Shown one piece after another: positions 16,681 through 61,749 of a stretch of DNA of 64,000 bases. The notes under the pieces were generated by a model. That model did no database searches. It was given only the letters and a program-made list of their open reading frames with translations, and was not told where the DNA came from. Source of the DNA: a virus (lineage: Duplodnaviria; Caudoviricetes). The translations under genes and the position numbers were made by a program. Where the stretch lies: positions 1 to 64,000 of the IMG/VR virus record IMGVR_UViG_3300037067_001739; one strand, written 5' to 3'. Each line of letters begins with the position of its first letter. Position 1 is the stretch's first letter.

Positions 16681-17066
16681 AAGATAGTGGGCAACGTCAA
16701 GAGTTTGACACTGGAAGTAAAAGAGATACTAGGGATGGGAAGGGTCGTTATGACCTAGTTCCACCTTATGCACTGTCAAGATTGGCAAGGCACTATGAAA
16801 ATGGTGCTAAGAAATATGGTGATAGGAATTGGGAAAAGGGGCAACCTCTGGCACGTTATTTGGATTCCATGATTCGTCATGCGTACAGGTTTCTTGGTGG
16901 TAGCCGTGACGAAGACCATTTAGCGGCAGTGGCTTGGAATGCTCTCGCTTACATTGAGACTGAGGAAAGAATACGTAGAGGTATTCTTCCTGCTGAACTT
17001 GATGATGTTGAACCAGTGAGGAAAACATTAAATGGAGAAACACAAGAGCAAAGCACTGGAAAATGA
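16659..17066 (+). CDS. dATP/dGTP diphosphohydrolase-like protein (DUF5664 type)
   Basis: GKGRYDLVP...GAKKYGDRNWEKG...RH...DHLAAVAWN. Confidence 0.78.
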   Translation: MPEFNEVKDSGQRQEFDTGSKRDTRDGKGRYDLVPPYALSRLARHYENGAKKYGDRNWEKGQPLARYLDSMIRHAYRFLGGSRDEDHLAAVAWNALAYIETEERIRRGILPAELDDVEPVRKTLNGETQEQSTGK

Positions 17067-17445
17067 ATGCCTGTGTGCTAAGTGCATATTCAGGTTTCAA
17101 TGTTTCACTCAAGAGCGTGTGTTCTCTGACCCTATCTATCAAGGTTTGTTCGAGGCTTTGATGGCAAAGGGTAGGAGCAGAGAAGAGGCTGTTGATGAAG
17201 TAGCGAATGAGATAAAAAATAAGATTGCGGGTGGTTTCCGTGTTACTTTGGATGACATTACACCATATGTACCACAACCAAACACGACAATTCAACCATA
17301 CTATCCGCAATGGCAAACATATTGTAGCGACAATGTTAGTGTTCAGCAACAAGAGAATGGTAGCTTACAAATAAGCTATACGTTGTTGGATGGAGAGGAA
17401 GTTAGTTGGTATGCAGGTTCAGAAGACTGCTCTAGGAACTTATGA
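17032..17445 (+). CDS. Hypothetical protein with CxxCxxRFxCFT motif
   Basis: CAKCIFRFQCFT. Confidence 0.6.
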   Translation: MEKHKSKALENECLCAKCIFRFQCFTQERVFSDPIYQGLFEALMAKGRSREEAVDEVANEIKNKIAGGFRVTLDDITPYVPQPNTTIQPYYPQWQTYCSDNVSVQQQENGSLQISYTLLDGEEVSWYAGSEDCSRNL

Positions 17446-19450
17446 GTTCATTGAAAAAGATTCCGAAGTCCCATCAGTGATTTCGGAGATAGAACAGCAT
17501 AAGTACATCTGCCTTGACACTGAGAATAGTGGTGGACTTGACCCTCTTGCAAAAGAGATAAGGGTCTTACTACTACAGCTTGGTGTGGGTTCTAAGGCTT
17601 ATGTTGTAGATGTCAGAAAAGTTAATATCAATCTGTTCAGTGACATCCTTTCTAATAAGAAGTGGATTAAGATAATTCAGAATGCTATTTATGACTTTAA
17701 GCTAATAAAGCATGTCTACAACATTCCAGTTAGAGGATTGTTCGATACCAAAACCGCAGAATCCTTACTACAAGCTGGACTCGATAGAACTAGCAACTCC
17801 TTGGAGAATCTGGCACTCAAGTATTCTGATATAAAGATGGCTAAGGATACAGTAATGACGTTTGTTAACCATCCTTATGATGCCCCATTTTCTGATGAGC
17901 AGTTAAGGTATGCGGCGGATGATGTCTTGGTTCTACCAGATATTCATAGGCAACAACAGATGTATCTCAATCAACTAGGACTTAATGGGATTGCTGAATT
18001 AGAGTTTGCCTTGATTGAACCTGTGGCAGAGATGGAGTTAAAGGGTGTAAGGATTGACTCTGAAATGTGGGGTAGAAGCTTAGATAACACTAAGAAGAAA
18101 CTGTTCATGGTCAGCAATGACTTGAGAACTGTATTACCAGCACCTCCACCTCCCCCTCCAAAACCTGTCAGGTTGAGAAAAGATGGCACACCTTATGCTA
18201 ATACGGCAAAAATAAAACCACCACCTGTTCTTAATCTTGATAGCTGGCAACAGTTGGTCACATCATTTAAGGGTGTTGGTGTTGATTTGGAAGAGGTCAA
18301 TAAGAAGACCAAGAAAGGTCCAACTAACAGCACTACTATAAAGTTTGCTCAAACTGTCTATCGTTCTGAACCAGAGAAGGTCAAGGTATTGAAGAATCTT
18401 ATGGTTTACAGAGCGTTGAACCAGGTTAAGAAAACGTTTGGTGATAATTTGCTTGACCACATCAGAGACGATGGAAGAATTCATGCAAGATTTCATCCAA
18501 ACGGAACAGATAGTGGTAGGTTTAGTAGTACCGACCCTAACTTGCAGAACATTCAGAAGAAGGGTGAAGAGGGTAAGATTCTAAGGTCTTGCTTCATTCC
18601 TGCTGAGGGGTATAAATACATCATTGCTGACTATTCTCAGATTGAGTTGAGAATTGTCGCAGAGTTAAGTAAAGACCCTCTAATGCTGGCTATTCTTGCA
18701 GACCCAAAGGGTGACATTCACAGAGGTACAGCTTCTCAGATGTACAAAGTACCTTATGACAAGGTATCTGGTGATTTGAGAAGAGCGGCTAAGACCCTAA
18801 ACTTTGGTATCATCTACGGTATGATGGTAAAAACGTTATCGGAAAGACTTAACTGTTCTTCCGAGGAAGCGGCAAAAGCTCTAGCTTTATATAATGAGAC
18901 GTATCAAGTTATGATGGGATGGTTGGAGACTGAGGGTAACAAAGCTTACAACAGGCATTGGTCTAAGACTATTGGTGGCAGGATTCGTTTCTTTCCTGAA
19001 CTTGACCAGAAGAAGTTCGAAACGATTCGTGATTTCAACAACATGATTGACTACTATAAGAGAGTTGGTAGAAATCATCCTGTTCAGGGAACGTCCGCTG
19101 ATATGACTAAGACAGCTATTGTATTGCTGTTCTATCCTCTAAGAAAACTTGGAGCAACAATCGTTAATACTATTCACGATGAGGTTTGTGTGGAAGTACC
19201 AGAGGAAAACACAATAGAAGCGGCAAAACTGGTGAAAGAAAAAATGATTCTAGCTGGACAGAGATTCTTGAGTAAAGTTCCTGTTCTGGTAGACGTTAAA
19301 ATCAGAGATTGCTGGTATAAGGATGACTTCGATTCAGCAAAGCTTGGTATTCAAGATGATGAAGAAGGACAACAGTTGATGCTGATGCCGAATAAGTGGG
19401 GTCTTGACGAAATCGGAGAGAGCGAAGATGATGAATCTAATGAGGAGTAA
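17390..19450 (+). CDS. Family A DNA polymerase with 3'-5' exonuclease domain
   Basis: Exonuclease motifs CLDTE and YAADD; polymerase motifs SGRFSSTDPNLQNI, ADYSQIELR, RRAAKTLNFGIIYG, IHDE. Confidence 0.96.
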   Translation: MERKLVGMQVQKTALGTYEFIEKDSEVPSVISEIEQHKYICLDTENSGGLDPLAKEIRVLLLQLGVGSKAYVVDVRKVNINLFSDILSNKKWIKIIQNAIYDFKLIKHVYNIPVRGLFDTKTAESLLQAGLDRTSNSLENLALKYSDIKMAKDTVMTFVNHPYDAPFSDEQLRYAADDVLVLPDIHRQQQMYLNQLGLNGIAELEFALIEPVAEMELKGVRIDSEMWGRSLDNTKKKLFMVSNDLRTVLPAPPPPPPKPVRLRKDGTPYANTAKIKPPPVLNLDSWQQLVTSFKGVGVDLEEVNKKTKKGPTNSTTIKFAQTVYRSEPEKVKVLKNLMVYRALNQVKKTFGDNLLDHIRDDGRIHARFHPNGTDSGRFSSTDPNLQNIQKKGEEGKILRSCFIPAEGYKYIIADYSQIELRIVAELSKDPLMLAILADPKGDIHRGTASQMYKVPYDKVSGDLRRAAKTLNFGIIYGMMVKTLSERLNCSSEEAAKALALYNETYQVMMGWLETEGNKAYNRHWSKTIGGRIRFFPELDQKKFETIRDFNNMIDYYKRVGRNHPVQGTSADMTKTAIVLLFYPLRKLGATIVNTIHDEVCVEVPEENTIEAAKLVKEKMILAGQRFLSKVPVLVDVKIRDCWYKDDFDSAKLGIQDDEEGQQLMLMPNKWGLDEIGESEDDESNEE

Positions 19451-19458
19451 ATAAAGGA

Positions 19459-21064: not shown

Positions 21065-21217
21065 TTTGTGGTACGATGCTTGTGTCGAGCTTTGGGGTAT
21101 GACAGATGATAGACCATACCTGAAGGATGAAGCAACCATGTGGGACGCTTTTCGCTTTGTCTACATGAGATTCGTTGAACCTGATGGCTCAGGTCGTAGA
21201 AGTGTAGGAGAGGTATA

Positions 21218-21586: not shown

Positions 21587-21587
21587 T

Positions 21588-22331
21588 ATGGAATTTAGCT
21601 ACACTATGCTCCATTCATATATGACATGTGAGTATAGCTATTATTTGAGATACATCGAAAGAGTGCCCATTAAAGAGTCTTCAGCATCAGTGTTTGGTAC
21701 TGCTGTTCATAGAACTATAAAGATTGGGTACGATAATAACCTACCAAGAGACGAGTGGGCTAAAATATTCAGAAAAGAGTGGATGGCTCTAACGTCAAAT
21801 AAGGACATTGTGTTCTCATCTGAAGGTGAGTACCTGAAAAAGTTCAAAGATGGTGCTGATATGGTTACCAACTATTATGATAAGTTTGTAAAGCGGCACA
21901 AACCACCACAGATGACCGAGTTCTTCTTTGGTAGAGATAAAGCTGTTAAGATTGGTGAGCATATCATTATTGGTGTGTTCGACCAGATTGATGCAAAAGA
22001 TAGGGTTATAGACTATAAGAGTGGTGTGAAACCAACCAAGAATAAGCTGGACTTGGATTTGCAGTTTACTATTTATAGTTATGCTTACAGGCAACTTTTT
22101 GGAAAAGAGGAAGGTGGTTTAATTCTTAGGCACTTGGGTACTATGAAAGACTTGACCACGACCCGTACAGAGGATGACTTCAGACTTTTAGAGGAAGAGG
22201 TTGATAAGGTTGCCAAGAGATTAAAGGGTAAACTGTTCATCAGAAGTTTGGACAGAGGATGCGACAATTGCTACTTCTTCGAGCATTGTCTAGGTAAGGA
22301 ACGCATTTATGGTAGAAGGCAGTATAGCTAA
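21588..22331 (+). CDS. RecB/AddB/Cas4-like PD-(D/E)XK exonuclease
   Basis: FSY...C, GTAVH, GVFD...IDYKSG, QFTIY, C-terminal CDNCYFFEHC. Confidence 0.88.
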   Translation: MEFSYTMLHSYMTCEYSYYLRYIERVPIKESSASVFGTAVHRTIKIGYDNNLPRDEWAKIFRKEWMALTSNKDIVFSSEGEYLKKFKDGADMVTNYYDKFVKRHKPPQMTEFFFGRDKAVKIGEHIIIGVFDQIDAKDRVIDYKSGVKPTKNKLDLDLQFTIYSYAYRQLFGKEEGGLILRHLGTMKDLTTTRTEDDFRLLEEEVDKVAKRLKGKLFIRSLDRGCDNCYFFEHCLGKERIYGRRQYS

Positions 22332-23557: not shown

Positions 23558-24129
23558 TTAGAGTTGCATTTACTGGCGCACCAGACTCAGGTAAAACGAC
23601 ACTAGCAAAGATGGTGTCAGCAAGGATGAATTTGAAGGGATATGTACCTGCTTACATTCATGAGTTTGCGAGGGATTATATCACAAAGTACGGTATCAGA
23701 CCGAACACTGTAGCGGAGCAGTTCTACGTCTTGAGAACGCAGGAAAAGCGGGAAAGGGAAATGTGTTCTGGTTCTACCCAAATAATGTACACCGATTGTC
23801 CTATTATGCTTTCTTACATCTATGCTATTGACTTGGTAAAAGATGAGAAAGACCTTGATATGCTTTCTGAGCTATACGGTGAAACATTACGGTTAATGAA
23901 GAATCGCTATGACCTCATTTTCTACCTTCGTCCGTTCAGAGAGACCGTAAAAGATGACGTGAGGGCGCAGGATTGGGATAGAATAGCGAAGCTTGATGAC
24001 CAAGTTAAAGCATTCCTAGTTCTGCATGGTATCGTTCACACCGAACTAACTGATACTAACATGGAACACAGGGTTGACTATGTTGAGGGTGCTATTGAAC
24101 ACGCACTCATGAAGGAGCAATATGCGTGA
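23554..24129 (+). CDS. NadR/AAA_28-type P-loop kinase
   Basis: TGAPDSGKTT, EFARDY, YDLIFYL, DDVR. Confidence 0.8.
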   Translation: MIRVAFTGAPDSGKTTLAKMVSARMNLKGYVPAYIHEFARDYITKYGIRPNTVAEQFYVLRTQEKREREMCSGSTQIMYTDCPIMLSYIYAIDLVKDEKDLDMLSELYGETLRLMKNRYDLIFYLRPFRETVKDDVRAQDWDRIAKLDDQVKAFLVLHGIVHTELTDTNMEHRVDYVEGAIEHALMKEQYA

Positions 24130-24841
24130 GGTGACAGCGTATTTACTGGCATTCGGTTCTCTACTTGAGGGAGACGACTACCAGTGGGACGGAATCTTGT
24201 TAGCAAAGAATAATCCTAATGGGTATCTGATGGCAGTTGTTCTTGACCAAGGTATGAAAGCCGAGAAGGTGTGGGCAATGCCTAACAAACTTCCTTGGAA
24301 TTGGGGCAATATGGAAGAGCTTGCTGTTCAGCCACTAGAGAAAACTGAGCAGGACTTAAAAGCGGTGGGTTGTAGGTATTGGAGAAATATGGCACGTTTT
24401 ATTAAAGATGATGCTCGTATTCTTATGGATAAGTACAATGGATGGGCTGAGAATATCTGGATGGATTACCCAACATCTATCCAAATGTATGAAAGGTTCT
24501 TAGAATTTAAGGGCATTGGTCAAAAGAAAGCGTCTATGGCAGTAAACATTCTTGTGCGTGACTGTAGTGTTCCAGTCAGTGACAAATCGGGAATAGATGT
24601 TTCTTATGATAAACACATAAGACAGGTGTTCTTGAGGTCTGGTCTTGCTGAATATGATGACCTTAACCATATTGTTGATGTAGCTCGCAAAGAGAAACCT
24701 GAGTATCCAGGGGCTTTGGACAAACCGTCATGGTATGTCGGTAGAGATTGGTGCTTTAATCAGAGTCCTGATTGTGCTCATTGTCCGCTAGGAAACGTCT
24801 GTGCTAAGAAGACCGAGATTGTTATAAAGGGAGAGGAATAA
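24122..24841 (+). CDS. HhH-GPD/endonuclease III-family DNA glycosylase with Fe-S cluster
   Basis: FKGIGQKKA HhH motif, DKHIRQV, CFNQSPDCAHCPLGNVC. Confidence 0.85.
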   Translation: MREVTAYLLAFGSLLEGDDYQWDGILLAKNNPNGYLMAVVLDQGMKAEKVWAMPNKLPWNWGNMEELAVQPLEKTEQDLKAVGCRYWRNMARFIKDDARILMDKYNGWAENIWMDYPTSIQMYERFLEFKGIGQKKASMAVNILVRDCSVPVSDKSGIDVSYDKHIRQVFLRSGLAEYDDLNHIVDVARKEKPEYPGALDKPSWYVGRDWCFNQSPDCAHCPLGNVCAKKTEIVIKGEE

Positions 24842-25037: not shown

Positions 25038-25289
25038 ATGGCAGATTACGGTGAAGGCATGAAAGCATTCGTTAGGTGTCCATCCTGCAAGCACTTGGTT
25101 TTTACGAACCATGTGCTACATCTTATGACACTTATCTTAGGTAAAGAAAAGTACATATGTAAGCAATGTGGTACTGTTCTCGATTTTATTCCTGTTTACC
25201 TGTGTTCACGAGAGTTGGGAGATAAGTGCAAGGAATGTGACTTCCGCTTCTCATGCTACTCCATGAGAACAGCCACCAAAGAGGCTTGA
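25038..25289 (+). CDS. Zinc-ribbon protein with CxxCxxRFxCYS motif
   Basis: CPSC, CKQC, CKECDFRFSCYS. Confidence 0.6.
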   Translation: MADYGEGMKAFVRCPSCKHLVFTNHVLHLMTLILGKEKYICKQCGTVLDFIPVYLCSRELGDKCKECDFRFSCYSMRTATKEA

Positions 25290-27714: not shown

Positions 27715-28660
27715 GTTTACTAAGGATGAACTTAGAGCTAAGTTACACGAAGCTCAAGTTCCCTATTTAGAGAGAAATAAGGAAAGGTTAGAAACGATAA
27801 AACCAAAGTGGGAAGCACATCAGGCGAATGTACCAGACATCAACAATCTTAATCCCTATATTGAGATTGCGGATGGTAAGAAAGACTTGCTAGATTTGCT
27901 GTTCTACGGTAGGATGACAATATCGAGCTTTCCGTTTAGTGGTGCAGTTGGCAGACGTATTCACTATCTGATTAGAAATAAACCAGATGGTTATGTGTTG
28001 GGTCTGGTTGTTCTTATGTCAGACTTAACTATTCCTATTCGTGATAAGCACATTGGATGGGATAGAAAACAAATGTGGCAAAGAATGAACTATTTGATGA
28101 ACGTCCACCTTGCCATTAGCACACCACCGCTTTCTCAGTATTTGACTGGTAAATTAACAGCCATATCTGTAGAAAGTAAAGAGATTCAGGATTACTTTGA
28201 AAGTAAGTATGGACATAAGTTAGCCGCAATGACTTGTACGAGTCTGTTTGGGAAGTCATCTATATACAACAGACTTCAGGGCTACGAGTATTTGGGGTTA
28301 ACGAAGGGTCACAGTGTAGCTCTTGTTCCTGTGGAAATCAAAGACAAAATGCGTGAGGACTTCAAGAAAGAGAAAGGTAAGCATTCTGAAGTCTACTACA
28401 ATGAAGATGGCACAGTAAAAGAGCGTTACGGTGTAGTTAAAGGATTCCAGAAGTTGCAGAAATATTATGATGTTCAGCAAACTGAGAATCAAAGAGGTAC
28501 GTACATTATTCCTCTAGCAGATAATTATAAAGAGTTTCTTCGTGGTGAAACAGATGATTTGAGGACATTCAATCATCCGTCATTTGAGGAACTAACTCAA
28601 CATTGGAAGGAACGTTGGTTAGATGGTCGTATCGAAAGAGTTAAAGCTGGTCTGATATGA
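27674..28660 (+). CDS. DUF4338/DruA-like domain protein
   Basis: GRRIHYLI, RDKHIGWD, GKLTA, TSLFGKSSIYNRL, LGLTKG. Confidence 0.68.
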   Translation: MTYHQRKGRNILGEFTKDELRAKLHEAQVPYLERNKERLETIKPKWEAHQANVPDINNLNPYIEIADGKKDLLDLLFYGRMTISSFPFSGAVGRRIHYLIRNKPDGYVLGLVVLMSDLTIPIRDKHIGWDRKQMWQRMNYLMNVHLAISTPPLSQYLTGKLTAISVESKEIQDYFESKYGHKLAAMTCTSLFGKSSIYNRLQGYEYLGLTKGHSVALVPVEIKDKMREDFKKEKGKHSEVYYNEDGTVKERYGVVKGFQKLQKYYDVQQTENQRGTYIIPLADNYKEFLRGETDDLRTFNHPSFEELTQHWKERWLDGRIERVKAGLI

Positions 28661-28839
28661 TAGAAGTCGAAAAAGTAGACATACCTATCACTACCTTTGG
28701 TAGCCAGAAAGAGGAACACATTGTCTTCTGGATGTGTGACGAAGGTAAAACATTTAGTAGAACAGCCGTTTTGGGACTCCTTGAAGTTTGTAAAGATTGT
28801 AAGAAAAGGTTTATATGTGCAACGGAACGGAAGTCATAA
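28657..28839 (+). CDS. Small protein with CxxCxxRFxCxT motif
   Basis: CKDCKKRFICAT. Confidence 0.55.
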   Translation: MIEVEKVDIPITTFGSQKEEHIVFWMCDEGKTFSRTAVLGLLEVCKDCKKRFICATERKS

Positions 28840-32953: not shown

Positions 32954-33208
32954 ATGAAAGTGACACTTGATTTTCCTGTAATGCACGACAGATGTAACAC
33001 TTGTGAGCACAGATTTGCGTGCTGGACAAGGAAAGTACATGTGGAATTGGATTTAACATATGGAGATGGAAGTTATCATACAATGATACAACCCTTCATC
33101 TTCGGTTTGGATTGCTTTAGACTAGAACCTTGGTCAAGGGTCAGAAATATAAAGCTTGACATCCTTCCAGACGGTACTTCGATGGTGTTAGATTTGTTTG
33201 CAGTATAA
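32954..33208 (+). CDS. Hypothetical protein with CxxCxxRFxCWT motif
   Basis: CNTCEHRFACWT; exactly fills the inter-tRNA spacer. Confidence 0.65.
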   Translation: MKVTLDFPVMHDRCNTCEHRFACWTRKVHVELDLTYGDGSYHTMIQPFIFGLDCFRLEPWSRVRNIKLDILPDGTSMVLDLFAV

Positions 33209-34115: not shown

Positions 34116-34517
34116 ATGTTTCTGTACATTGCAGTTGATGACAGGACGATAAAAAGCACTTGGAATTGGGACTTTGAGGGTTGCAATTCTTGTCCGCATA
34201 GATTTGAGTGCTACACAGAAGACAGTGCTACTATAAAGCCTGTCAAAGTAGATGAGTGGGAAGCAGATAGCTACCTATATTCTCGCAATTATAAGGCTGA
34301 GTTTCATCTACCAAAATGTATACGAGCAGGGCTATTTAAGCAGATAGCGGATACTGGATATTGGAAAAGCAGTTATCCAACGGATTTCGGTGACGGCTTC
34401 AAGTTAGGTGGAGTGTTTAGTGATGAAGGTGAGCACGTTACAGTTGAGCGTGCGTGGGTAAAGTTTCCTAGCACTCTTTATGTCACTGGCTTAAAGAGAA
34501 AGGTGCGTTGGTGTTAA
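34116..34517 (+). CDS. Hypothetical protein with CxxCxxRFxCYT motif
   Basis: CNSCPHRFECYT; stop lies within tRNA-Asp. Confidence 0.65.
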   Translation: MFLYIAVDDRTIKSTWNWDFEGCNSCPHRFECYTEDSATIKPVKVDEWEADSYLYSRNYKAEFHLPKCIRAGLFKQIADTGYWKSSYPTDFGDGFKLGGVFSDEGEHVTVERAWVKFPSTLYVTGLKRKVRWC

Positions 34518-34577
34518 TGGTGAGCATACTACCCTGTCAAGGTTGAGGGAGGGGTTCGTGTCCCCTACGCACCGCCA
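34502..34577 (+). tRNA. tRNA-Asp(GTC)
   Basis: Loop CTGTCAA, G73, CCA. Confidence 0.88.
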
Positions 34578-34870
34578 TGAAAAAGATAATAGCGTATACT
34601 GATGACGACAAACCCTTTGGTGATAGTCCAGAGGATTATCTAGACTATGAGCTACGTGTCATAGACAGAAGGGTAAGGATTGAAAACAAAGAGCGCAAAG
34701 ATAAAGCAACTACTACTATAGAAGGTGCTGTACAAGCGGCTCAGAGATACATGTTTTCGAGTCCTAAAGAATTCCCTATGACTGATACTCTGTTTATGGC
34801 GGAATGCAAACGAAGAAAGGTCGGTGATTGTAGTATCTGTAAACTCAGATTTAGGTGTTGGACAGAATGA
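34577..34870 (+). CDS. Hypothetical protein with C-terminal CxxCxxRFxCWT motif
   Basis: CSICKLRFRCWT; CCATG start. Confidence 0.65.
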   Translation: MKKIIAYTDDDKPFGDSPEDYLDYELRVIDRRVRIENKERKDKATTTIEGAVQAAQRYMFSSPKEFPMTDTLFMAECKRRKVGDCSICKLRFRCWTE

Positions 34871-34953: not shown

Positions 34954-35026
34954 GGCATCGTGGTCGAGTGGCTAAGGCGAGCGTCTGCAAAACGCTTTTA
35001 CGTGGGTTCAATTCCCACCGATGCCT
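34954..35026 (+). tRNA. tRNA-Cys(GCA)
   Basis: Loop CTGCAAA, U73; no full CCA. Confidence 0.9.
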
Positions 35027-35027
35027 C

Positions 35028-35429
35028 ATGAATACAAAAGATATAGGTGATATTACTCAAGCTAAACTAGAACTAAAATTGTTGCTACAAGGTTACGTAG
35101 TATTGACCCCACGTGGTGATAATCTTAGATACGACTTTGTTATTGAGCGTAATGGTAACTTTGATAGAGTTCAGTGTAAGACTGGACGTTACAGAAAAGG
35201 ATGTGTGGTATTTGATACTCGTTCTTCTAGTTGGCACAGAGACGGTAAGAAAGAACCGTATAATAAATATCAGATAGATTTCTTTGGAGTATATTGTCCT
35301 CAGTTGGATAGTTATTACTTGATACCTGTTGAGGATATTGGTGATAAATACCAGTGTAACTTGCGGGTTGATGAACCGAGGAAGAAAAATAATCGTTATA
35401 TTTGGGCAAAAAATTATATTCTGGTGTAG
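35028..35429 (+). CDS. Group I intron-associated-type PD-(D/E)XK endonuclease
   Basis: GDITQAK...GYVVLTPRGDNLRYDFVIE...RVQCKT...IDFFGVY...YLIP. Confidence 0.85.
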   Translation: MNTKDIGDITQAKLELKLLLQGYVVLTPRGDNLRYDFVIERNGNFDRVQCKTGRYRKGCVVFDTRSSSWHRDGKKEPYNKYQIDFFGVYCPQLDSYYLIPVEDIGDKYQCNLRVDEPRKKNNRYIWAKNYILV

Positions 35430-35495
35430 TTCAATCGGTAGAGCAGGCGGCTGTTAACCGTCAAGTTGATGGTTCGAGACCATCCACCAGAGCCA
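35420..35495 (+). tRNA. tRNA-Asn(GTT)
   Basis: Loop CTGTTAA, G73, CCA. Confidence 0.92.
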
Positions 35496-35665
35496 TGCAG
35501 AGAATAAAGATTCCTGAGTCTAGCTACTTTGTCTATTGTAATGACAAGTGCGAGACGTGCGAGGTCAGATTCAGGTGTTTCACCAGTCGTGAAATGCTTG
35601 TTGTTGATTTACCTACAGCAAAAAGGATAGTCGAGTCTGAATATATGGATTGGTTAATTAGGTAG
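35495..35665 (+). CDS. Small protein with CxxCxxRFxCFT motif
   Basis: CETCEVRFRCFT; CCATG start. Confidence 0.65.
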   Translation: MQRIKIPESSYFVYCNDKCETCEVRFRCFTSREMLVVDLPTAKRIVESEYMDWLIR

Positions 35666-36015: not shown

Positions 36016-36333
36016 ATGATACCAAGAAGGATAATGCTAAAAGGCAAAACTGGACACAACGAATATATGTGTTCGGGGTCTTCTTGTGATACTTGTAAAC
36101 TCAGATTTGAATGCTTTACTGAGGATAGAGAACATATACTTTGGTTAGAGTGGGATGAGCTTCACGCAAAGTATAGAGGAATCAGTCCTTCAAGAGTATT
36201 GAGAGACATAATCGGTAGTAAAGTTTGGGTTGAGGGTAGCAGAAGGTTCAGAGAAAATATGGAAAAGGCAAGGAGCTTGCTTCCATCTGAACAGCGTGAT
36301 ATTAGAGTTCAACATTTATTAAGGGAGCTATAG
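36016..36333 (+). CDS. Hypothetical protein with CxxCxxRFxCFT motif
   Basis: CDTCKLRFECFT; stop lies inside tRNA-Leu(AAG). Confidence 0.65.
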   Translation: MIPRRIMLKGKTGHNEYMCSGSSCDTCKLRFECFTEDREHILWLEWDELHAKYRGISPSRVLRDIIGSKVWVEGSRRFRENMEKARSLLPSEQRDIRVQHLLREL

Positions 36334-37897: not shown

Positions 37898-37926
37898 TTG
37901 ACTTTGTAAGTGGCATTGTGTATAAT
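37898..37926 (+). promoter_or_regulatory. Sigma70-type promoter
   Basis: TTGACT-17 nt-TATAAT. Confidence 0.8.
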
Positions 37927-45726: not shown

Positions 45727-47076
45727 TTATCGTCTGCCATCTATGTACTCCCTTGCCTTAGCGAAAGCACCCTCTCTGTCATCCTTATCCAACTTGTCAT
45801 CAATGACCAGATTGGTCAGGTGATTCTTGATTTCACCAACAAACTTTCCAGGCTTTAGTGAGAATTCGTTCATGATTTCATTACCGTCAATAGGGGAAGC
45901 TAGAGACTCTGGTTCTTCCGCCAAGCACTCGCTCACCATCTTGGTTAGGATGGTCATGAACTTATAGCGTGGGTTCTTAGAAGAGCGAATATCACACTTT
46001 ACCAAGTCCATTAGTAGTCCGATATTATCTTCACCAACTCTACGTACTAGACGCATGATGATTCTCTTCTTAATCTTACCCCTGACAATTTCTCTCTGTA
46101 GAACGATAGGAGTCATGTGATACTTAATCAAATGACAAACGCTCTGAACAGTTTCATTATCGTAACGTAGTCTGCGTAGAAGCTTTCTAGCCTTTCTAGC
46201 ACCCACGTTGTGGTGGGAGTAGAAATGAACACCACTCTCATCTTCTATCTTGGTTTCAGGCTTACCGATGTCGTGCAAGATACAAGCTAGACGGAAGATT
46301 AGGTTTCTGTCACCCTGCTCAATCTTAGAACCCTTGTGTAGAACCAACAGAGAATGCTCGTAAGCATCCTTGATGTGATTCTTACCCTGCTGGATGTTCT
46401 TCAAGTCCATGAACTCAGGTACGATGTAGTAAATCAGTCCAGTCTGACACAACTTTCTCCAACCGTAAGAAGCTCTGCTAGACAACAGGATTCTGTTCAG
46501 TTCCTCACGGATTCTTTCCTTAGATACTATCTGTAGTCTCTCAGGATGTTCAATCTTTACGTCAAGAGTGAAGCCAAGCTCGCAGGCAAAACGTACTGCA
46601 CGAAGCATTCTTAGAGGGTCTTCGTCAAATCTTTCGTTTCCACCTACTACCTTAATCAATCTATTGTTCATATCAATCAAACCACCAAACGGGTCAACTA
46701 CAGTTCCAGTCAATGGGTCACGAGCGATGGCATTGATAGTGAAGTCTCTGCGAGACAAGTCCTCTACCAAGCTATCACCAAACACGACCTCTGGCTTACG
46801 AGAATTGGAAGGGTAAACTTCCTTTCTGTAAGAAGTCACTTCAACGGTGACACCCTTAACGTTAAGACCAATAGTACCAAATGCTTCACCCATTGCATAG
46901 ATAGCACCCAAGTCATTTAGAAGTTCCTTTATCTTAGTTGGGTGGGCATTAGTTGCTAGGTCAATATCGTGAGACTTTCTATTAAGGAAAGAATCACGGA
47001 CATGACCACCAACTTCGTACAGTTCAAGTCCTTCGTTCTTGAATCTTTCAGCTATAGTCTTTATCAATTCTTCCAT
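45727..47076 (-). CDS. cca: CCA tRNA nucleotidyltransferase with HD domain
   Basis: VGGHVRD, DIDLAT, DLSRRDFTINA, EDPLRMLRAVRF, ERIREE, LHDIGKP. Confidence 0.93.
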   Translation of the reverse strand: MEELIKTIAERFKNEGLELYEVGGHVRDSFLNRKSHDIDLATNAHPTKIKELLNDLGAIYAMGEAFGTIGLNVKGVTVEVTSYRKEVYPSNSRKPEVVFGDSLVEDLSRRDFTINAIARDPLTGTVVDPFGGLIDMNNRLIKVVGGNERFDEDPLRMLRAVRFACELGFTLDVKIEHPERLQIVSKERIREELNRILLSSRASYGWRKLCQTGLIYYIVPEFMDLKNIQQGKNHIKDAYEHSLLVLHKGSKIEQGDRNLIFRLACILHDIGKPETKIEDESGVHFYSHHNVGARKARKLLRRLRYDNETVQSVCHLIKYHMTPIVLQREIVRGKIKKRIIMRLVRRVGEDNIGLLMDLVKCDIRSSKNPRYKFMTILTKMVSECLAEEPESLASPIDGNEIMNEFSLKPGKFVGEIKNHLTNLVIDDKLDKDDREGAFAKAREYIDGRR

Positions 47077-50347: not shown

Positions 50348-51654
50348 TTTCCGTTTATTGCGTCCGCCGCAATTATACCACTTGCTACTGCTTGGATGAT
50401 GCCTCTTGATACACCACTTCCATCACCCACACAATACAAATTAGGTATTGATGTCTGCATATTTTTTAGTTCAATGACGTTAGAGTAGAACTTGACTTCG
50501 ATGCCATAGAGCAAGTTGCTTCCAGCCATCATGCCAGGAGCTATCTTATCCATCGTCTGTATCATTTCCGTTAAGTCACACAGGTAACGATATGGAAGTA
50601 CGAGGCTCAAGTCCCCTGGAAACGCATCCAGTGTTGGCTTCACATTACTCTTTACTATTCGTTCCTTGGTTGAGCGTCTACCGTCCAGCAGGTCACCAAG
50701 TCTCTGTACTATCACTCCACCCTCAGCGATGTTGTTTGCTAAGGAGACGATTGACCTCCCGAACTCATTAGGACGAATAGGAGAACCGAATGGGATGCTT
50801 ACAAGGAGAGCAAAGTTGGTATTAGTTGTCACTCCCTGTTTGAAGCTATGCCCGTTGCAGGTGGTCAGGTCATCAAATTGTTCCCGTACCACTTCACCAT
50901 GTGGACATACGCAGAATGTTCTTACCATGTCATCAAAACACTTGGTATAGTAGTGTATCTTGAAGTCATGACTAAACTTTACTAACTCTGCGGCAACAGC
51001 ATCAGGTACTTCCATTCTGACACCCAAATCTACTTTGTTACCACCAACCTTAACATTCAAAACAGATAGCTGGTCAGCTAACCATTTAGAACCCTCTCGA
51101 CCAGTGGCGAGCACTACGGTCTTTGCTCGGTATGTCTCGCTGTCAAGACCGAACTCACCAGCACTTAGATGGAACTCGTCTCCCACAATCTCGATGTCAT
51201 GGATGTCTGTGCAGAGTCTTACCTCACACTTCTTGTCCAATTCCTTGTACATCTTCTCGGTAAAAATTCGGCTACCATCAGTCCCAAGATGAATGGTGTT
51301 CGTTGCGAGTAACTCCATTCCCTCTCTAGATGCCCTGTCAGCAAGTGATTGTTGAGCATCGTCAAGGTGAGGTTGTAAAGTCGTTAAATCGGCATCAGCA
51401 CCGAACATCTTAGCGGCTCGGCACAGGTAATAGCTAGGTTGATATGTATGTTCCTTGATGTTTCCACCAACGACATCAGACATAACTAGCTTGCCATCAG
51501 AGAATAAACCAGCACCACCGAAGCCAGAGGTGATTGAGGTGCGTTCCATTACTCCCTTACCTTTGTCTATTAAAACGACTTTTAATTTTGGGTCGAGTGT
51601 CTTGGCTACTGCCATTCCAGCAGGTCCAGCACCAACTATTGCCACATCATACAT
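50344..51654 (-). CDS. FAD-dependent oxidoreductase
   Basis: VGAGPAG, GGAGLFSDGKL, RTFCVCPHG, VGDGSGVSRG. Confidence 0.88.
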   Translation of the reverse strand: MYDVAIVGAGPAGMAVAKTLDPKLKVVLIDKGKGVMERTSITSGFGGAGLFSDGKLVMSDVVGGNIKEHTYQPSYYLCRAAKMFGADADLTTLQPHLDDAQQSLADRASREGMELLATNTIHLGTDGSRIFTEKMYKELDKKCEVRLCTDIHDIEIVGDEFHLSAGEFGLDSETYRAKTVVLATGREGSKWLADQLSVLNVKVGGNKVDLGVRMEVPDAVAAELVKFSHDFKIHYYTKCFDDMVRTFCVCPHGEVVREQFDDLTTCNGHSFKQGVTTNTNFALLVSIPFGSPIRPNEFGRSIVSLANNIAEGGVIVQRLGDLLDGRRSTKERIVKSNVKPTLDAFPGDLSLVLPYRYLCDLTEMIQTMDKIAPGMMAGSNLLYGIEVKFYSNVIELKNMQTSIPNLYCVGDGSGVSRGIIQAVASGIIAADAINGK

Positions 51655-52163
51655 TACTTTGTCTCCAACAGTTGCAATACCATTTTCCTGAAATACTCTT
51701 GACCATCTGGATATAAATACCCATCTGTAGTCTCATCTTCACAACTCTTTATATTTTGTCTATAATCTTCTGCATGTTTGACTTCCATCAGTACCTTGTT
51801 CATACGAGCCTGTATCTGCTTGTAGTCCATTTCTACTGCTATCCATTCGGCATCAGGTTGAGGATTACCAGCAGTCCAGCATTTGAACCTTTGGTTACAC
51901 TTATCACAGTTCTTAAACTCGACTTCCTTTTCCTTTATTCGGCACTGCTCAAATTTCCATTCGTCAGTATTCTTTTTTATAAAGTAATCTCTAGCTGTAC
52001 CTTTTGGTACATTAGAGATATTCGGATGCTTGCCAGAAAGTCTACCAGTTACCGTTCCTACGTGAGTATCGGACAGTACAAGTATAGTATTTTCTGGAAT
52101 GTCCTCACTTACCAATATCGGTAAATTTTTTATCACAAGAGCGTTCTCCGAATGACTCAACAA
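51654..52163 (-). CDS. Hypothetical protein with CxxCxxRFxCWT motif
   Basis: CDKCNQRFKCWT. Confidence 0.6.
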   Translation of the reverse strand: MLSHSENALVIKNLPILVSEDIPENTILVLSDTHVGTVTGRLSGKHPNISNVPKGTARDYFIKKNTDEWKFEQCRIKEKEVEFKNCDKCNQRFKCWTAGNPQPDAEWIAVEMDYKQIQARMNKVLMEVKHAEDYRQNIKSCEDETTDGYLYPDGQEYFRKMVLQLLETK

Positions 52164-53319
52164 TTACAGGTAAGCACAACCTTTCACTAACCTCTTGAAC
52201 AAGGTTATCACTTACCACGACATGTGGTTTACATTTGAACAGTGTATCAGTTAATTTTGATTGTTCATCAAGACCAAATGGAGTTCTAAGTTCAGTAACA
52301 AACCCACGTGTAGGTGGTAGATGGTAGCTGTCACACAGCTTCGAGCAGTTTTCGTCAATATGCGTGACCGCTAAAGCATTCACCCCACCGTTCACCTTGA
52401 GTGCATACTTAGTTGCCACAAGGTCAAGTACACCAGTTCTAAAACCACCCTGCCACTCGTTAGTCACGTTATATTTATCAACAAACGGCAAATCAGTTTC
52501 GGTCACAAATGGTCCGTTGCCATGACGAGTCGAGTACGTTCTGATAACACCAATCTCGGTTGCTTCCTGATACCACAATTTCCAGGCATTCTTTGTAGTG
52601 GTTGTAGTCCACATAGTGTGCGGATGGAAACCATAGTTCTCGTCAAGCAAAACGCCACCAGCACCCTCAAATATTACTTGGTCGAATCCATGAGTATCAA
52701 GGTTCTCTACTATCTTAATGTTCTGAGCTAGTAGGAACTCATAAATACCCATACAGAGTTCTGGTGCTTTGGGGTCGTCCAGAATTGCATCTGCTACTCC
52801 CACTTCTGCTCGTTTCTTCTCTTGTATGGTCTTTAGCTTTGTCATAGCAGTCTCATGGTCTAGCAAGTCTCTTACTCTTAAAACCAGACCATCTAACGAG
52901 TCTGCGACAGCGTTGCCCATACCCATCCCACAGCTACCATGCCTGTTCTTTGTCTCAAGTACCCTATTTGCTACCTTGTGGAAAGGTGTTACAATCGGTG
53001 TTTCGACATTGATAGACAGTCTAGATAGTGCATCATTCACATCAATATTGCACAGCCCCTCATTCTCACGTAGCATGGAAAGAGGGTCTATCCACACATA
53101 TTCAGACAGATATGTTTTAACTGTAGGAACGAGTGTGCCACTACCAAACTGAGCAAACGTGTGGTGGACTCCCTTTGCAGTCACAACATTGTGTGCGGCT
53201 TGAGGTCCACCATTGTACCTTACAATCAAGGTGTTTGGGGTGAGACAGGAAAGATAATCAATGACTGTTCCCTTTCCTGCGTCACCAAAGCCTAAGTCTA
53301 CGACTATATAAGCTTTCAT
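52105..53319 (-). CDS. Adenylosuccinate synthetase-like protein (divergent PurA family)
   Basis: DLGFGDAGKGT, RYNGGPQAAHNV, HGSCGMG, FEGAGG, TRHGNGPF. Confidence 0.88.
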   Translation of the reverse strand: MKAYIVVDLGFGDAGKGTVIDYLSCLTPNTLIVRYNGGPQAAHNVVTAKGVHHTFAQFGSGTLVPTVKTYLSEYVWIDPLSMLRENEGLCNIDVNDALSRLSINVETPIVTPFHKVANRVLETKNRHGSCGMGMGNAVADSLDGLVLRVRDLLDHETAMTKLKTIQEKKRAEVGVADAILDDPKAPELCMGIYEFLLAQNIKIVENLDTHGFDQVIFEGAGGVLLDENYGFHPHTMWTTTTTKNAWKLWYQEATEIGVIRTYSTRHGNGPFVTETDLPFVDKYNVTNEWQGGFRTGVLDLVATKYALKVNGGVNALAVTHIDENCSKLCDSYHLPPTRGFVTELRTPFGLDEQSKLTDTLFKCKPHVVVSDNLVQEVSERLCLPVIVESFGERSCDKKFTDIGK

Positions 53320-53630
53320 TAGTTGTCCTCGGCTTCCGTAAAACATTTGAACCTAGTTCTACATTTATCACATATGGCTAGTCGCTTATCCAAAGGAAGC
53401 TTTTTGCTACAACAAAAATGCAGGTCAACCCTATCACGAGAGTTGATTGTACCATACTTTGTCCTGTATGCGCTATATCCGTAACTACCATCTTTGTTAC
53501 GTTTAGCCCTTGGTGTACAGTCTATACACCATGTAAAGTGTCTACCGTACTTCCTGAAACACTTAGGACATATTTTGTAGTAACCATTACTTGCCATAAT
53601 ATTATTCGGTGGCGTGACCAAGCATTTCAC
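53319..53630 (-). CDS. Cys-rich protein with CxxCxxRFxCFT motif
   Basis: CDKCRTRFKCFT. Confidence 0.6.
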   Translation of the reverse strand: MKCLVTPPNNIMASNGYYKICPKCFRKYGRHFTWCIDCTPRAKRNKDGSYGYSAYRTKYGTINSRDRVDLHFCCSKKLPLDKRLAICDKCRTRFKCFTEAEDN

Positions 53631-54923: not shown

Positions 54924-55709
54924 CTATACCTTAAATGGTCTAAAGACTGAACCGTAAAGTTTCTTGACAACCTTATCCAGTTGTTCGTGCAATTCTCGTG
55001 CATCTGTCATGCCCATAGAACCAGCACGCATAATGATACGAATGTCTTTACTAACATTATCAATACCACCCATCAACTTCGTCATGAGAATAGTTGCCAT
55101 ATGAATATCAAGAGCAGTTCCATTCTCTACTGTCAAAGCATATTCAGGGTAATAGTCTTTAATGTGTACCTCAAACTTTGGTTTTTTACCAACCTGATTC
55201 ACGTGCATCCAGTCTATCAACCAGATGCCGTGAGTTTTCAGGTTCAGTAACACGTGCTCTGGAAGCACAGCCGAGTGTATGTAACCAAGTGAATGAGCAG
55301 TCCAAATTGCCGCAAGCAATCTCTTATACATCCAAACCATATCTCGCTCGTCTATACCATTCGGATATACTTTTAACACCTTCTCCAAGCTTGGCATATC
55401 CTTGTCGTATCTGTATGCTACGGCATTATTCTTCATGCTACAATTAAAGTTCTTTGCTGACGTGAAACACTTGAACCTCTCAGGACAACTATCACATACT
55501 TTAAGTCCTGCTGTTTCGTCAAGAATGTCTGGAAACAGGTCAGCTAAGTTGGTTTTCTTCAACTTGCTAACAATCTCTACCTCTTTCTTGAGTCGGGGTT
55601 CATCCTTTGGGTCTCTTACAACCTTGAGTAATGTAACCCCATCGTCACAGAGTAGAGCATCTGTGTACGTTCCAGTTGCTATCTTTTTTGCGTTATCGTA
55701 TACACTCAT
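54924..55709 (-). CDS. Protein-kinase-like protein with an inserted CxxCxxRFxCFT motif
   Basis: LLKV...E, WMYKRLL, HSLGYIHSAVLPEHVLL, LIDW, YYPE, DIHMA. Confidence 0.75.
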   Translation of the reverse strand: MSVYDNAKKIATGTYTDALLCDDGVTLLKVVRDPKDEPRLKKEVEIVSKLKKTNLADLFPDILDETAGLKVCDSCPERFKCFTSAKNFNCSMKNNAVAYRYDKDMPSLEKVLKVYPNGIDERDMVWMYKRLLAAIWTAHSLGYIHSAVLPEHVLLNLKTHGIWLIDWMHVNQVGKKPKFEVHIKDYYPEYALTVENGTALDIHMATILMTKLMGGIDNVSKDIRIIMRAGSMGMTDARELHEQLDKVVKKLYGSVFRPFKV

Positions 55710-59393: not shown

Positions 59394-59930
59394 TCAAATC
59401 TCACCCCTTTTGCTTCTGCCGTAGTAGCAGTACCAGACTTTATTCTCCACATCGTATTTCATGTAAGAGCAACGTCTGTAGGGAGAACCTTTGTAGTTTT
59501 GCCGCATCCAGCTATGATTACAGTCGTCTCGCTCTTTGTATGCACAATAGACTTCATCCATTTCCAATTTGTTGTTATAGATGCCAGTATAGGAGCGCAC
59601 TCCATCAATATGCCTAGTATCAATAACGTTAGGAACACTCTTAATTTCGTGTGCCTTTACGTTCAGTAATTCTCGTTCAATTATTGCGTCTGCTCTAGTG
59701 ATGCACCTGAATCTATCTGAACAAGTGTCACAATACTGGTAACCATGCAGTCTTGCCGCATGATTGACAAGAAAACAATCTACGACCTCAGTCATACAGT
59801 CAGTGCAAACAACTGTCATGAAACGGTCACGGACTACCTTGACCACTCCGATTTTGTCCACGTCTTTGTGGGATTCACAAGTGGGACAATACCATCCATA
59901 ACCTCTAACTTTTGTGAGTAGCTTTTTCAT
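59394..59930 (-). CDS. Cys-rich protein with CxxCxxRFxCxT motif
   Basis: CDTCSDRFRCIT. Confidence 0.6.
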   Translation of the reverse strand: MKKLLTKVRGYGWYCPTCESHKDVDKIGVVKVVRDRFMTVVCTDCMTEVVDCFLVNHAARLHGYQYCDTCSDRFRCITRADAIIERELLNVKAHEIKSVPNVIDTRHIDGVRSYTGIYNNKLEMDEVYCAYKERDDCNHSWMRQNYKGSPYRRCSYMKYDVENKVWYCYYGRSKRGEI

Positions 59931-60090
59931 TTGCTAACTTGTCCTTAGCCCAATCATAGAGAAGGAACACATGCCACAGTTCACCACGCCCTGACGCATT
60001 CCAAAGTGCCTCTGGTGTTACTGGTGTGTCAGGATTATCAAGCTTCATTGCTTTGACAATAATCTCGCACATTTCTTTTCCAGTTGGCAT

Positions 60091-60309
60091 TTATTTCTCC
60101 TTTGGTTTTCTTCCCCTGCCTTCCCACTTACCGCTTGTTTCATGTTCTTTTATCCATTTTAGAACACTATCTGCAAGAAATACACAACTGTTCCCAAGAC
60201 GGATTACAGGAAAATTCTTCTCTCTAACCAATCTTGCTAATTGACTTTTATCAATTTTTAAGAGTTCAAGGATACGTTCCTCGCTCCATACTTCTTGTTC
60301 TAAGACCAT
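60091..60309 (-). CDS. Excisionase/AlpA-like HTH protein
   Basis: ELLKIDKSQLARLVREKNFPVIRLG...F...VLKWI. Confidence 0.7.
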   Translation of the reverse strand: MVLEQEVWSEERILELLKIDKSQLARLVREKNFPVIRLGNSCVFLADSVLKWIKEHETSGKWEGRGRKPKEK

Positions 60310-60888
60310 TTATATAGCCTTTAGTAATTTCTGGCAGGATTTTGACTTGAGACAATTTCCACCAGATTTTTGAAGCTGAACTATCAGCTTTTGTAACGAT
60401 ATTTTTACTTCTTTGGGGAAGTAGAGGTCCACTGCCACCCTCTTTGCTTTGGCTGGGTCGCAGTCTTTCCAGATTTCGTAGAAGACTTTTTGGTCGGCTT
60501 TGTCTTTGAGAGCTTGGTAGATTTCGTTTTCCGTTGTGTAGAGGACGATGGTTTTTCTGTCACCGTACTCTCGGATTTCTGTTCTACCTTTTCTTTCTGG
60601 TTTAACAGTCCCTCTATTCCTGACTTTATTGGGTGCTTTTTGTATTCTTCCCATTGTTTCTCATCCAATCCTATAGGATATGCGTCAAGAGTGCCAGGTT
60701 CACGACCTTGCTTGAACATCGTAAGCCAGTAAATCTTACCATCAAAAAACACTTCACCTTGATTCCCCCACTCATCTGTTATCCACCTTGTAGATGAACG
60801 GTCTTTGGTTTCACCGTCATGGGTAACCTTGCGTCTCTTTTTGGATTGCTTTTTGAAAGCTTCCTTACGGGCTACCTTCTCAGCTTTT

Positions 60889-61197
60889 TCAATTTCCTTT
60901 TTGACTTTTTTGCTGTATCGCATATTCTTCTACCAACCTATCAGCTATTCTCGCAAGAAGTGATTCATCGAATTTGCCCAAGTTTTTATTGATTTCTACT
61001 CGTGTCCCAAAGCACTTCATGAACAGATGATTGTCACCCATTTCTTCACGCATTATCCGTACTGCATGTAGCGGGCAACAACTACTCTGTGATGTATAAC
61101 AACCGAATCGGAAGTCACAAGCACTACAGGGTGGGGCTTTGAATGTAAAGATGTCCTCGGTAACTTGAGTTATCTCCATGACACACCCTCTATCCAT
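60889..61197 (-). CDS. Protein with CxxCxxRFxCYT motif
   Basis: CSACDFRFGCYT. Confidence 0.6.
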   Translation of the reverse strand: MDRGCVMEITQVTEDIFTFKAPPCSACDFRFGCYTSQSSCCPLHAVRIMREEMGDNHLFMKCFGTRVEINKNLGKFDESLLARIADRLVEEYAIQQKSQKGN

Positions 61198-61550
61198 TCA
61201 ACGCCCTTTATCTTTAGTCGCATCGGTTCGTTACCCTCAGCAGACAAAAACTGAGCCAAGATAACTCCATGAAAGATGTGAAACATACCATCATGCTCGG
61301 CATGTATTGTAACCTTGCTACCTACCATATTTCCACACTTAAAACACTTCGGGCAGACAGCATCAAGTTCAAATCCATCCTGTCCAGCCAACTGTCGGTT
61401 CATACTTAAATGAACTATCTGGAATGTGGAACGTCTGCTTGTCCAGCATTTGAATCGTTCATCGCATACTTGGCATTTGCTTTCATCTTTCTCGACACAC
61501 TCGTACTCAAGTTCTGCGTACATGAGCATTTCCTCAGTCGGTATTGCCAA
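61170..61550 (-). CDS. Protein with CxxCxxRFxCWT motif
   Basis: CQVCDERFKCWT. Confidence 0.6.
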   Translation of the reverse strand: MAIPTEEMLMYAELEYECVEKDESKCQVCDERFKCWTSRRSTFQIVHLSMNRQLAGQDGFELDAVCPKCFKCGNMVGSKVTIHAEHDGMFHIFHGVILAQFLSAEGNEPMRLKIKGVEWIEGVSWR

Positions 61551-61749
61551 TGTCGTCTACCACCTTGAGCAAGTCACTCAGTCTAGGGATTTCCCCCGAC
61601 TTGACTTTTACAGGATTGTGTTTTACACGTTCTGTAAAGCACTGAAACCTATTTTTACATGCGTTACAACAAGTGGGGTCAGTTTTCATTTTGTCACATT
61701 GACTTATTACTAGCTGACCCTCGACCCATTCAAAATGCACTTTTCCCAT
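61534..61749 (-). CDS. Protein with CxxCxxRFxCFT motif
   Basis: CNACKNRFQCFT. Confidence 0.6.
   Translation of the reverse strand: MGKVHFEWVEGQLVISQCDKMKTDPTCCNACKNRFQCFTERVKHNPVKVKSGEIPRLSDLLKVVDDIGNTD

Follow-up and report, generated by a model that had tools for sequence, protein, structure and literature searches.

A recurrent cysteine tag in a phage genome

The window analysed here is the first 64 kb (64,000 nucleotides) of a single 134,397-bp virus record from IMG/VR (IMGVR_UViG_3300037067_001739; Caudoviricetes), with a CheckV completeness of about 90%. It encodes 19 proteins that share a 12-residue motif, C-x2-C-x2-R-F-x-C-[FWY]-T, hereafter the tag, and that we refer to as carriers (Table 1). 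A six-frame search of the window with the pattern C..C..R[FYWLIM].C returned exactly 19 sites, identical to those listed in the original prediction and with no extras, and C-x2-C-x2-R-[FY]-x-C likewise matched only these 19. All of them lie in frame within real or plausible open reading frames (ORFs) on the strands initially assigned, so both the sites and the ORF starts were confirmed, as was the occurrence of the tag at N-terminal, internal and C-terminal positions. For two carriers, the starts at 35495 and 41746 are better than those of the longest ORFs because both adjoin the 3' ends of tRNA genes located with ARAGORN (tRNA-Asn, 35420-35495; tRNA-Pro, 41670-41746).

When the 19 tags are aligned as DNA, the conserved residues show no variation at codon positions 1 and 2, while position 3 carries 0.07-1.4 bits, and the tag Arg is encoded by AGA, AGG, CGC and CGA. 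As synonymous sites vary almost freely and positions 1 and 2 are fixed, selection acts on the peptide, in line with what had been proposed from the codons. Genome-wide, there are 48 strict tags and 3 with Lys in place of Arg, giving 51 in all ORFs (44 in called genes). When residues were shuffled within each called protein, the mean was 0.007 tags per proteome, with a maximum of 1 in 300 shuffles. About one protein in five bears a tag in this phage and its relatives. The 51 tags are confined to blocks of small genes at 25-45 kb (+ strand), 44-96 kb (- strand) and 110-111.6 kb (+ strand), the sole exception being carrier 17032 in the replication block; apart from this carrier, the large-ORF blocks (1-24, 84-89, 97-109 and 112-134 kb) hold no tags.

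A logo of 253 distinct instances reads [ED]-K-C-[DEN]-x-C-[KPE]-x-R(92%)/K-F(95%)-[KR]-C-[F/W/Y, 29% each]-T(93%)/S-[ETS]-[RK], with Lys replacing Arg in 8% of tags. About 23% of carriers terminate 1-3 residues past the Thr, and each carrier has a single tag (251/251).

The carriers are otherwise unrelated

With the 12 tag residues masked, an all-against-all BLASTP of the 51 carriers gave one clear pair (17032 and the protein at genome 72039), one further pair sharing only an N-terminal leader, and one marginal pair. No Pfam family was common to more than one of 50 carriers. Together, these results uphold the description of the carriers as otherwise unrelated proteins. Four carriers are recognised by Pfam: a family-4 uracil-DNA glycosylase (UDG) with the tag at its very C-terminus, a protein ending in a bL12 C-terminal domain (CTD) followed by the tag, a kinase-like protein with the tag in its N-terminal part, and a PolA-like fragment, in which the tag and C74 fall within a stretch of about 35 residues inserted with respect to the Pfam PolA model.

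A fourth cysteine accompanies the tag

At least one additional Cys is present in 243/244 complete carriers, and exactly one in 84. The single carrier lacking it has a mis-called start, and its homologues have a Cys 2 residues upstream. By comparison, 17/66 loci from a chance-level set with single hits lack an extra Cys. The fourth Cys had earlier been described as usually present at a variable distance, which understates how regularly it occurs. Where there is exactly one extra Cys, its position is between -2 and -13 in 55/83 carriers, with peaks at -4, -5, -8 and -10, and in the remaining cases it is 17-73 residues away on either side. Cys-rich carriers have conserved Cys totals of 8 or 12.

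Orthologue alignments (36-76% mean column identity) show 100% conservation of the extra Cys for nearly all families. Within the window, C13 of carrier 17032 (which has a paralogue at genome 72039-72470) is kept in 8/8 homologues, C54 of carrier 32954 in 3/3 orthologues at 62% mean column identity, and C19 of carrier 36016 in 5/5 homologues at 41%. The position of the fourth Cys can also change within a family. Among the bL12-CTD fusions, the Cys lies where the domain starts in four members, and the two lacking it there have one at -4 from the tag instead. The fusion itself (genome 78435-78941; L001:14438-14941, - strand) matches PF00542 (E 1.1e-12), has a beta-rich N-terminal part and ends with the tag. 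It is conserved in five relatives, and AlphaFold2 models its bL12-like domain with a predicted local distance difference test (pLDDT) score of 85-92.

The tag and its Cys are also gained or lost together. In three of five UDG orthologues, the C-terminus is extended by about 45 residues, which include the tag together with a Cys at -10; the other two end before this extension. Cys 10, 13, 79 and 102 of UDG are conserved in all five orthologues and are separate from the tag; they are probably the ligands of the enzyme's own cluster. One UDG orthologue (L090:5679-7181, + strand) is without the C-terminal tag and is interrupted, immediately behind a conserved Cys, by about 300 in-frame residues that look like an intein or homing-endonuclease element.

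Because the fourth Cys is present, conserved, able to relocate, and gained or lost jointly with the tag, we infer a "staple"-type metal site of four cysteines, with the fourth ligand placed wherever the fold allows. The proposal that the motif is a portable metal-binding module thus gains support from this obligatory, conserved, co-inherited and relocatable Cys, from the presence or absence of the tag among UDG orthologues, and from weak matches only to families with Cx2Cx5C spacing (see below).

The tag is confined to one group of phages

A scan of IMG/VR with a degenerate DNA pattern found the tag repeated many times in about 10 contigs of 55-153 kb, and a protein-level count gave 21 tags in one 12.9-kb locus. 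Five complete relatives contain 50, 40, 41, 26 and 22 tags over their whole records, with 0 matches to the reversed-pattern control in each. Among orthologues at 30-85% identity, tag status is nearly always concordant, which indicates that the tags are old and maintained. In the window, for example, the orthologue of carrier 25038 at locus L049 is also tagged, as is that of the carrier at 53319..53630 at locus L011 (79% identical). Large viral contigs with a single pattern match were considered as further tag genomes and rejected, as in-frame stops marked these as chance matches.

The original prediction had proposed a search for a mimicked host motif. We scanned one genome from each of 185,579 prokaryote species (596 Gb) and found 45 single matches, versus roughly 40 that we estimate would arise by chance for a pattern carrying about 35 bits of information. 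Nearly all of these were in short ORFs in the wrong frame, and only two short contigs from metagenome-assembled genomes resemble binned fragments of the phage group. This chance-level result indicates that the tag is specific to the phage clade and does not copy an abundant cellular motif. Searched against 5.8 billion proteins of longer lengths, the tag profile gave only 7 matches at E up to 0.001, all unnamed, the profile being too short for a census. A full-text literature search found no description of the motif, and broader searches on cysteine motifs and phages returned unrelated papers only.

Table 1 Tag-bearing proteins in the window (all coordinates are window positions; aa, amino acids).
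Coordinates	Strand	Protein	Tag	Features
17032..17445	+	Carrier, 137 aa	17074-17109	N-terminal tag; fourth Cys 2 residues upstream
25038..25289	+	Carrier, 83 aa, 8 Cys	25227-25262	Tag near C-terminus; also zinc-ribbon-like CxxC pairs
28657..28839	+	Carrier, 60 aa, exactly 4 Cys	28789-28824	Tag near C-terminus
32954..33208	+	Carrier, 84 aa, exactly 4 Cys	32993-33028	Remote fourth Cys, residue 54
34116..34517	+	Carrier, 133 aa	34182-34217	Remote fourth Cys, residue 68
34577..34870	+	Carrier, 97 aa, exactly 4 Cys	34829-34864	One residue from tag to protein end
35495..35665	+	Carrier	35549-35584	Start at tRNA-Asn 3' end; fourth Cys 4 residues upstream
36016..36333	+	Carrier, 105 aa, exactly 4 Cys	36085-36120	Spacing C-x4-C-x2-C-x5-C
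37910..38299	+	Carrier, 129 aa, 13 Cys	37994-38029	12 Cys conserved, three sets of four
40520..40795	+	Carrier, 91 aa, 8 Cys	40676-40711	Tag with C38, plus separate four-Cys ribbon
41746..41970	+	Carrier	41923-41958	Start at tRNA-Pro 3' end; tag 3 residues before C-terminus
44735..45070	-	Carrier, 111 aa, 8 Cys	45029-45064	Tag from residue 3
51654..52163	-	PolA-like fragment, 169 aa	51873-51908	Downstream of PurZ homologue
53319..53630	-	Carrier, 103 aa, 10 Cys	53337-53372	Tag near C-terminus
54924..55709	-	Kinase-like protein, 261 aa	55461-55496	Tag N-terminal to Pkinase-like region
59394..59930	-	Carrier, 178 aa, 12 conserved Cys	59697-59732	Tag with C52
60889..61197	-	Carrier, 102 aa	61093-61128	
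61170..61550	-	Carrier, 126 aa	61440-61475	
61534..61749	-	Carrier	61633-61668	Conserved fourth Cys 10 residues upstream

Source and genomic setting

A search of sequencing runs found DNA of this phage in groundwater and landfill metagenomes, with one groundwater run as its possible source. Two further landfill studies contain it as well, one of them at 0.90 of the sampled words; no RNA run was among those listed with phage DNA. The genome has a G+C content of 42%. Its structural block had zero megablast matches among 50,697 phage records, and the best tblastn identity for PolA was 30.5%; with PolA identity no higher than this, the phage has no cultured relative.

Between 26073 and 44599, the window holds 37 tRNA genes interleaved with small ORFs, including a tRNA-Cys (34954-35027), and several tagged ORFs (35495, 41746 and 34577) start at or a few bases from a tRNA 3' end. 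Genes for an RtcB RNA ligase (genome 93594-94751), an ATP-dependent DNA ligase (genome 92126-93046; both at locus L002) and a CCA-adding enzyme (window 45727-47076) accompany the tRNA set and look like a tRNA repair and maturation toolkit. A homologue of the PurZ-type 2-aminoadenylosuccinate synthetase (52105-53346, - strand; phrog_1211, E 3.5e-68) lies directly upstream of the PolA-like fragment, with no full-length second polymerase next to the two genes; their sequences suggest a genome with 2-aminoadenine (Z-base). Finally, a radical-SAM/SPASM gene heads a run of ORFs (window 61801-64000, continuing to genome 69007; L001:1-5007) that share the opening M-K-x-R-x-G-F-V-S-N-S-S and differ thereafter, two of them tagged.

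Nature of the proposed metal site

We consider that the tag and its fourth Cys probably form a metal staple, most likely around a [4Fe-4S] cluster, that spread as a grafted cassette within one phage clade. In this view, the motif C-x2-C-x2-R-F-x-C-[FWY]-T would supply three of the four Cys ligands of a compact metal centre. The last would come from the same chain, usually from 4, 5, 8 or 10 residues upstream and in other cases from a distance of tens of residues in either direction. Such a staple would clamp a terminal extension or a loop insertion to the protein body, stabilising small, fast-evolving proteins of the early or middle phase of infection. The cluster would be loaded by the iron-sulfur (Fe-S) machinery of a host living without oxygen, and the invariant Arg, Phe, aromatic and Thr may be second-shell residues that pack on the centre and hydrogen-bond to it. 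The cassette would have a single origin, having been grafted to many unrelated genes in one uncultured clade of phages of about 135-150 kb and kept by purifying selection.

The resemblances of the tag are consistent with this reading. No Pfam model above threshold, PDB sequence or fold library recognises it; the 140-segment tag profile matched only GATA among PDB sequences, at a meaningless E of 1.8. We also scanned 140 tag segments of 42 residues against Pfam at a permissive threshold, and the only recurring matches, all sub-threshold, were DDE_Tnp_1_6 (9), Whib (4), EndIII_4Fe-2S (3) and NifQ (2). As all of these families are built around Cx2Cx5C, we counted them in favour of Fe-S. At the residue after the second Cys of the tag, Gly is not among the six commonest (<6%), and Pro accounts for 16%. 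Gly is typical at this position in zinc knuckles, and Pro is common in Fe-S motifs.

The phage encodes enzymes of several Fe-S types, namely a Cas4-like nuclease, an HhH-GPD-like protein, the family-4 UDG and the radical-SAM/SPASM enzyme, and its relatives encode up to four radical-SAM genes. The anaerobic host setting that had been suggested is plausible given these several phage radical-SAM genes and the groundwater and landfill metagenomes. Two of these enzymes lie in the window and have Cys spacings of their own without the R-F or aromatic-T signature: the Cas4-like PD-(D/E)XK nuclease (21588-22331, + strand; PDDEXK_1, E 3.6e-25) has an ordinary Cx2Cx5C, and the HhH-GPD-like protein (24122-24841, + strand; a weak match) ends in C-x6-C-x2-C-x5-C.

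Outside the tag-rich clade, an unnamed family of phage nucleases (L031:6453-7349 and L050:10609-11463, both + strand; weak PDDEXK_1; 31 database homologues) combines an N-terminal Cys with C-x2-C-x-[YF]-[KR]-x2-C-W-[PG]. This is the staple layout, with a basic residue at +6 and an aromatic at +10 as in the tag. The exact R-F-x-C-W-T match of the L031 nuclease is partly luck, as the family consensus is [KR]-x2-C-W-[PG].

Several observations weigh against an Fe-S staple. AlphaFold2 rendered the 140-sequence tag profile as coil (pLDDT 66), the tag of the modelled bL12-CTD fusion scored only 58-62, and the tag model had no structural match (Foldseek versus PDB; VIA-align). The Cas4-like nuclease of the phage has no basic residue at +6. 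A phage-encoded IscU or IscA was sought and none was found, and about 50 Fe-S proteins per infection would be a heavy load. In addition, DUF3799 (PDB 3L0A) holds zinc in the same staple layout (PMC3466216), which means that spacing alone cannot fix the metal. Lastly, R, F and T are more than 92% conserved in over 250 non-homologous contexts, with one tag per protein. This exceeds what is usual for second-shell packing and leaves room for a role in recognition.

The leading alternative, possible though distinctly less likely, is that the same four-cysteine staple natively binds zinc as a structural Zn(Cys)4 knuckle, with an unusual arrangement of C-x2-C-x5-C plus one. Zinc ribbons are common in small phage proteins, many carriers have classical CxxC pairs, and their conserved Cys counts are multiples of four. 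Zinc would also be cheaper to the host than some 50 clusters and would fit with the missing phage Fe-S scaffold gene, as well as with the Cas4-like staple around zinc in the DUF3799 structure (PMC3466216). However, Fe-S is what binds in every characterised family with a weak resemblance to the tag (PMC3466216; PMC11729352). Moreover, a second CxxC knuckle is hardly ever made by the fourth Cys (offset -3 in 2/83 carriers with a single extra Cys), and Gly after the second Cys is rare. On balance, we infer that an Fe-S cluster is appreciably the likelier of the two.

A possible docking surface

An additional function, compatible with the staple, is that the metal-held loop acts as an address or docking tag by showing R-F-x-C-aromatic-T to one shared reader. 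We regard this as unlikely, if worth keeping in view. Candidates for such a reader are a host factor (for instance an Fe-S carrier or chaperone, or the surface of a sigma factor or polymerase, as with WhiB) and a phage protein; through it, recruitment, timing or redox gating would be imposed jointly on about 50 early proteins. Consistent with docking, the non-ligand residues are highly conserved across unrelated carriers (R 92%, F 95%, T 93%), each protein has one tag (251/251) even where there are three metal sites, and tags are restricted to the small-gene blocks, carrier 17032 excepted. Furthermore, the untagged ORF at 45067-45399 (- strand) has a plain C-x2-C-x11-C where its L016 orthologue (3048-3380, + strand) has the tag, so that RF and the aromatic-T are dispensable for that protein's own fold. 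On the other hand, no reader was identified, the radical-SAM/SPASM and kinase-like candidates not being conserved across the tag-rich genomes, and the motif copies no cellular motif. The kinase-like protein had been considered as a clade-wide reader, with the invariant Thr as phospho-site, and was rejected because it has no orthologue in the five relatives.

Somewhat more doubtful still is a combined form, in which the staple doubles as a proteome-wide handle: a cluster-dependent R-F/aromatic-T surface read by one partner, making up a virus-encoded, redox-gated address system. That partner would be a host factor for Fe-S delivery or quality control, or a component of transcription or translation, as WhiB has in sigma region 4. 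Loading, localisation or shut-off of some fifty early phage proteins would in this way be coordinated, with destruction of the cluster by oxygen or iron limitation as one possible trigger.

Other explanations are far less probable. The tag might be a recognition or substrate site for the phage radical-SAM/SPASM maturase, for instance for thioether or other Cys chemistry, and the gene for this enzyme does lie among the carriers (genome 67931-69007), is 61-80% conserved in several relatives, and has tags in two proteins of the array downstream of it. However, a complete relative with 40 tags (G002) is without any radical-SAM gene, another with 22 tags (G005) retains only a 69-residue remnant of the enzyme, and a metal site, unlike a modification motif, accounts for a fourth Cys that is obligatory and conserved. 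The absence from the complete 40-tag genome largely refutes this enzyme as the tag's own.

It is just as improbable that the carriers descend, as full-length paralogues, from one ancestral family and have diverged until only the motif is still recognisable. While two or three carrier pairs are truly paralogous, the tag is placed N-terminally, internally or C-terminally, is fused to UDG, the bL12 CTD, a kinase-like fold and a PolA-like fragment, and is an add-on that some orthologues lack. Least of all can the tag be a nucleic-acid signal (promoter, RNA element or recombination site) translated by accident: although the DNA pattern is recurrent and strand-specific, it always falls in one frame of a real ORF, its information sits at codon positions 1 and 2 with varying synonymous sites, and Arg is coded by both AGR and CGN, a codon pattern that refutes this reading.

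Implications

If the tag binds Fe-S, a single phage places about fifty clusters on unrelated accessory proteins, and viruses of anoxic habitats would then depend on the iron-sulfur metabolism of their hosts to an extent so far unrecognised. Protein engineering would likewise gain a minimal transplantable staple of 12-20 residues for protein ends and loops, which could also be used to probe why a Cx2Cx5C site takes up iron-sulfur or zinc. Were the site to bind zinc, it would still mean that fast-evolving small phage proteins gain stability by cassette grafting. The tag also offers a sequence by which one phage clade, and the early proteins that it encodes, can be recognised in metagenomes.

Comparison with known systems

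One close precedent for an Fe-S staple is found in the Cas4/AddB nucleases, in which the cluster is bound via three C-terminal Cys and one N-terminal Cys in an "iron staple" (PMC3466216). Like the tag, Cas4, AddB and Dna2 combine C-x2-C-x5-C with a fourth Cys of the same chain, and in these nucleases the arrangement ties two parts of the protein together (PMC3466216). In these enzymes, however, the staple spans the nuclease core of one domain family, whereas the tag is a free cassette of about 12-45 residues present in more than 50 unrelated proteins per genome, with the fourth Cys usually only 4-10 residues away. No carrier matched PDDEXK_1 or Cas_Cas4, and none is a nuclease by Pfam.

The WhiB-like (Wbl) [4Fe-4S] proteins of Actinobacteria and actinophages (PF02467) also have C-x(n)-C-x2-C-x5-C with an Arg between the second and third Cys. 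Their consensus has a hydrophobic residue after the third Cys, and the cluster pocket doubles as a protein-docking surface. The four Whib matches among the tag segments reached a best E of 0.0034. In the genome, Whib had no match at E up to 1, and no carrier reached the Pfam threshold. The carriers differ in that the rest of the Wbl fold is absent, and neither the habitat nor the 42% G+C hints at an actinobacterial host.

FNR, RseC and NifQ resemble the tag in pairing a Cx2Cx5C triad with one more ligand, and their sites form an oxygen-labile cluster; in RseC, the CX2CX5C forms an oxygen-sensitive Fe-S cluster (PMC11729352). The NifQ spacing, C-x4-C-x2-C-x5-C, is that of the common -5 variant of the tag. 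Unlike the tag, these sites are single-copy, family-specific and not portable, and have no R-F or aromatic-T signature. The C-terminal EndoIII/MutY loop (PF10576; C-x6-C-x2-C-x5-C) matched 3/140 segments below threshold, but a Cys occurs at -7 in only about 8% of tags, and the carriers are without an HhH-GPD domain. The SPASM/Twitch motif C-x2-C-x5-C-x3-C is not that of the tag, as a Cys 4 residues after the third Cys occurs in 1/253 tags and the carriers have no radical-SAM domain.

The commonest weak match was to DDE_Tnp_1_6 (PF13751; IS1182/IS5-type transposases), with a best E of 0.0019 among its 9/140 segments. One whole carrier reached 13.7 bits against a 25.1-bit cut-off, over profile positions 13-51 only, and by ESM features the top match of ORF 36016 (0.95) was to DDE_Tnp_1_6 fragments. 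The carriers differ from these transposases in having no DDE domain. To our knowledge, the function of the Cys motif in IS1182/IS5-type transposases is uncharacterised.

The zinc staple of DUF3799 (PMC3466216), like zinc knuckles and ribbons, uses four Cys for a structural metal, as proposed for the tag in small phage proteins. The tag differs in having neither paired CxxC...CxxC nor the knuckle Gly, and a lone Cys would be its fourth ligand; the zinc-ribbon Pfam matches in carriers fall on other Cys pairs and not on the tag. Sites of this type are already known; what is new is that a fifth of a viral proteome bears one as a free cassette that can be grafted.

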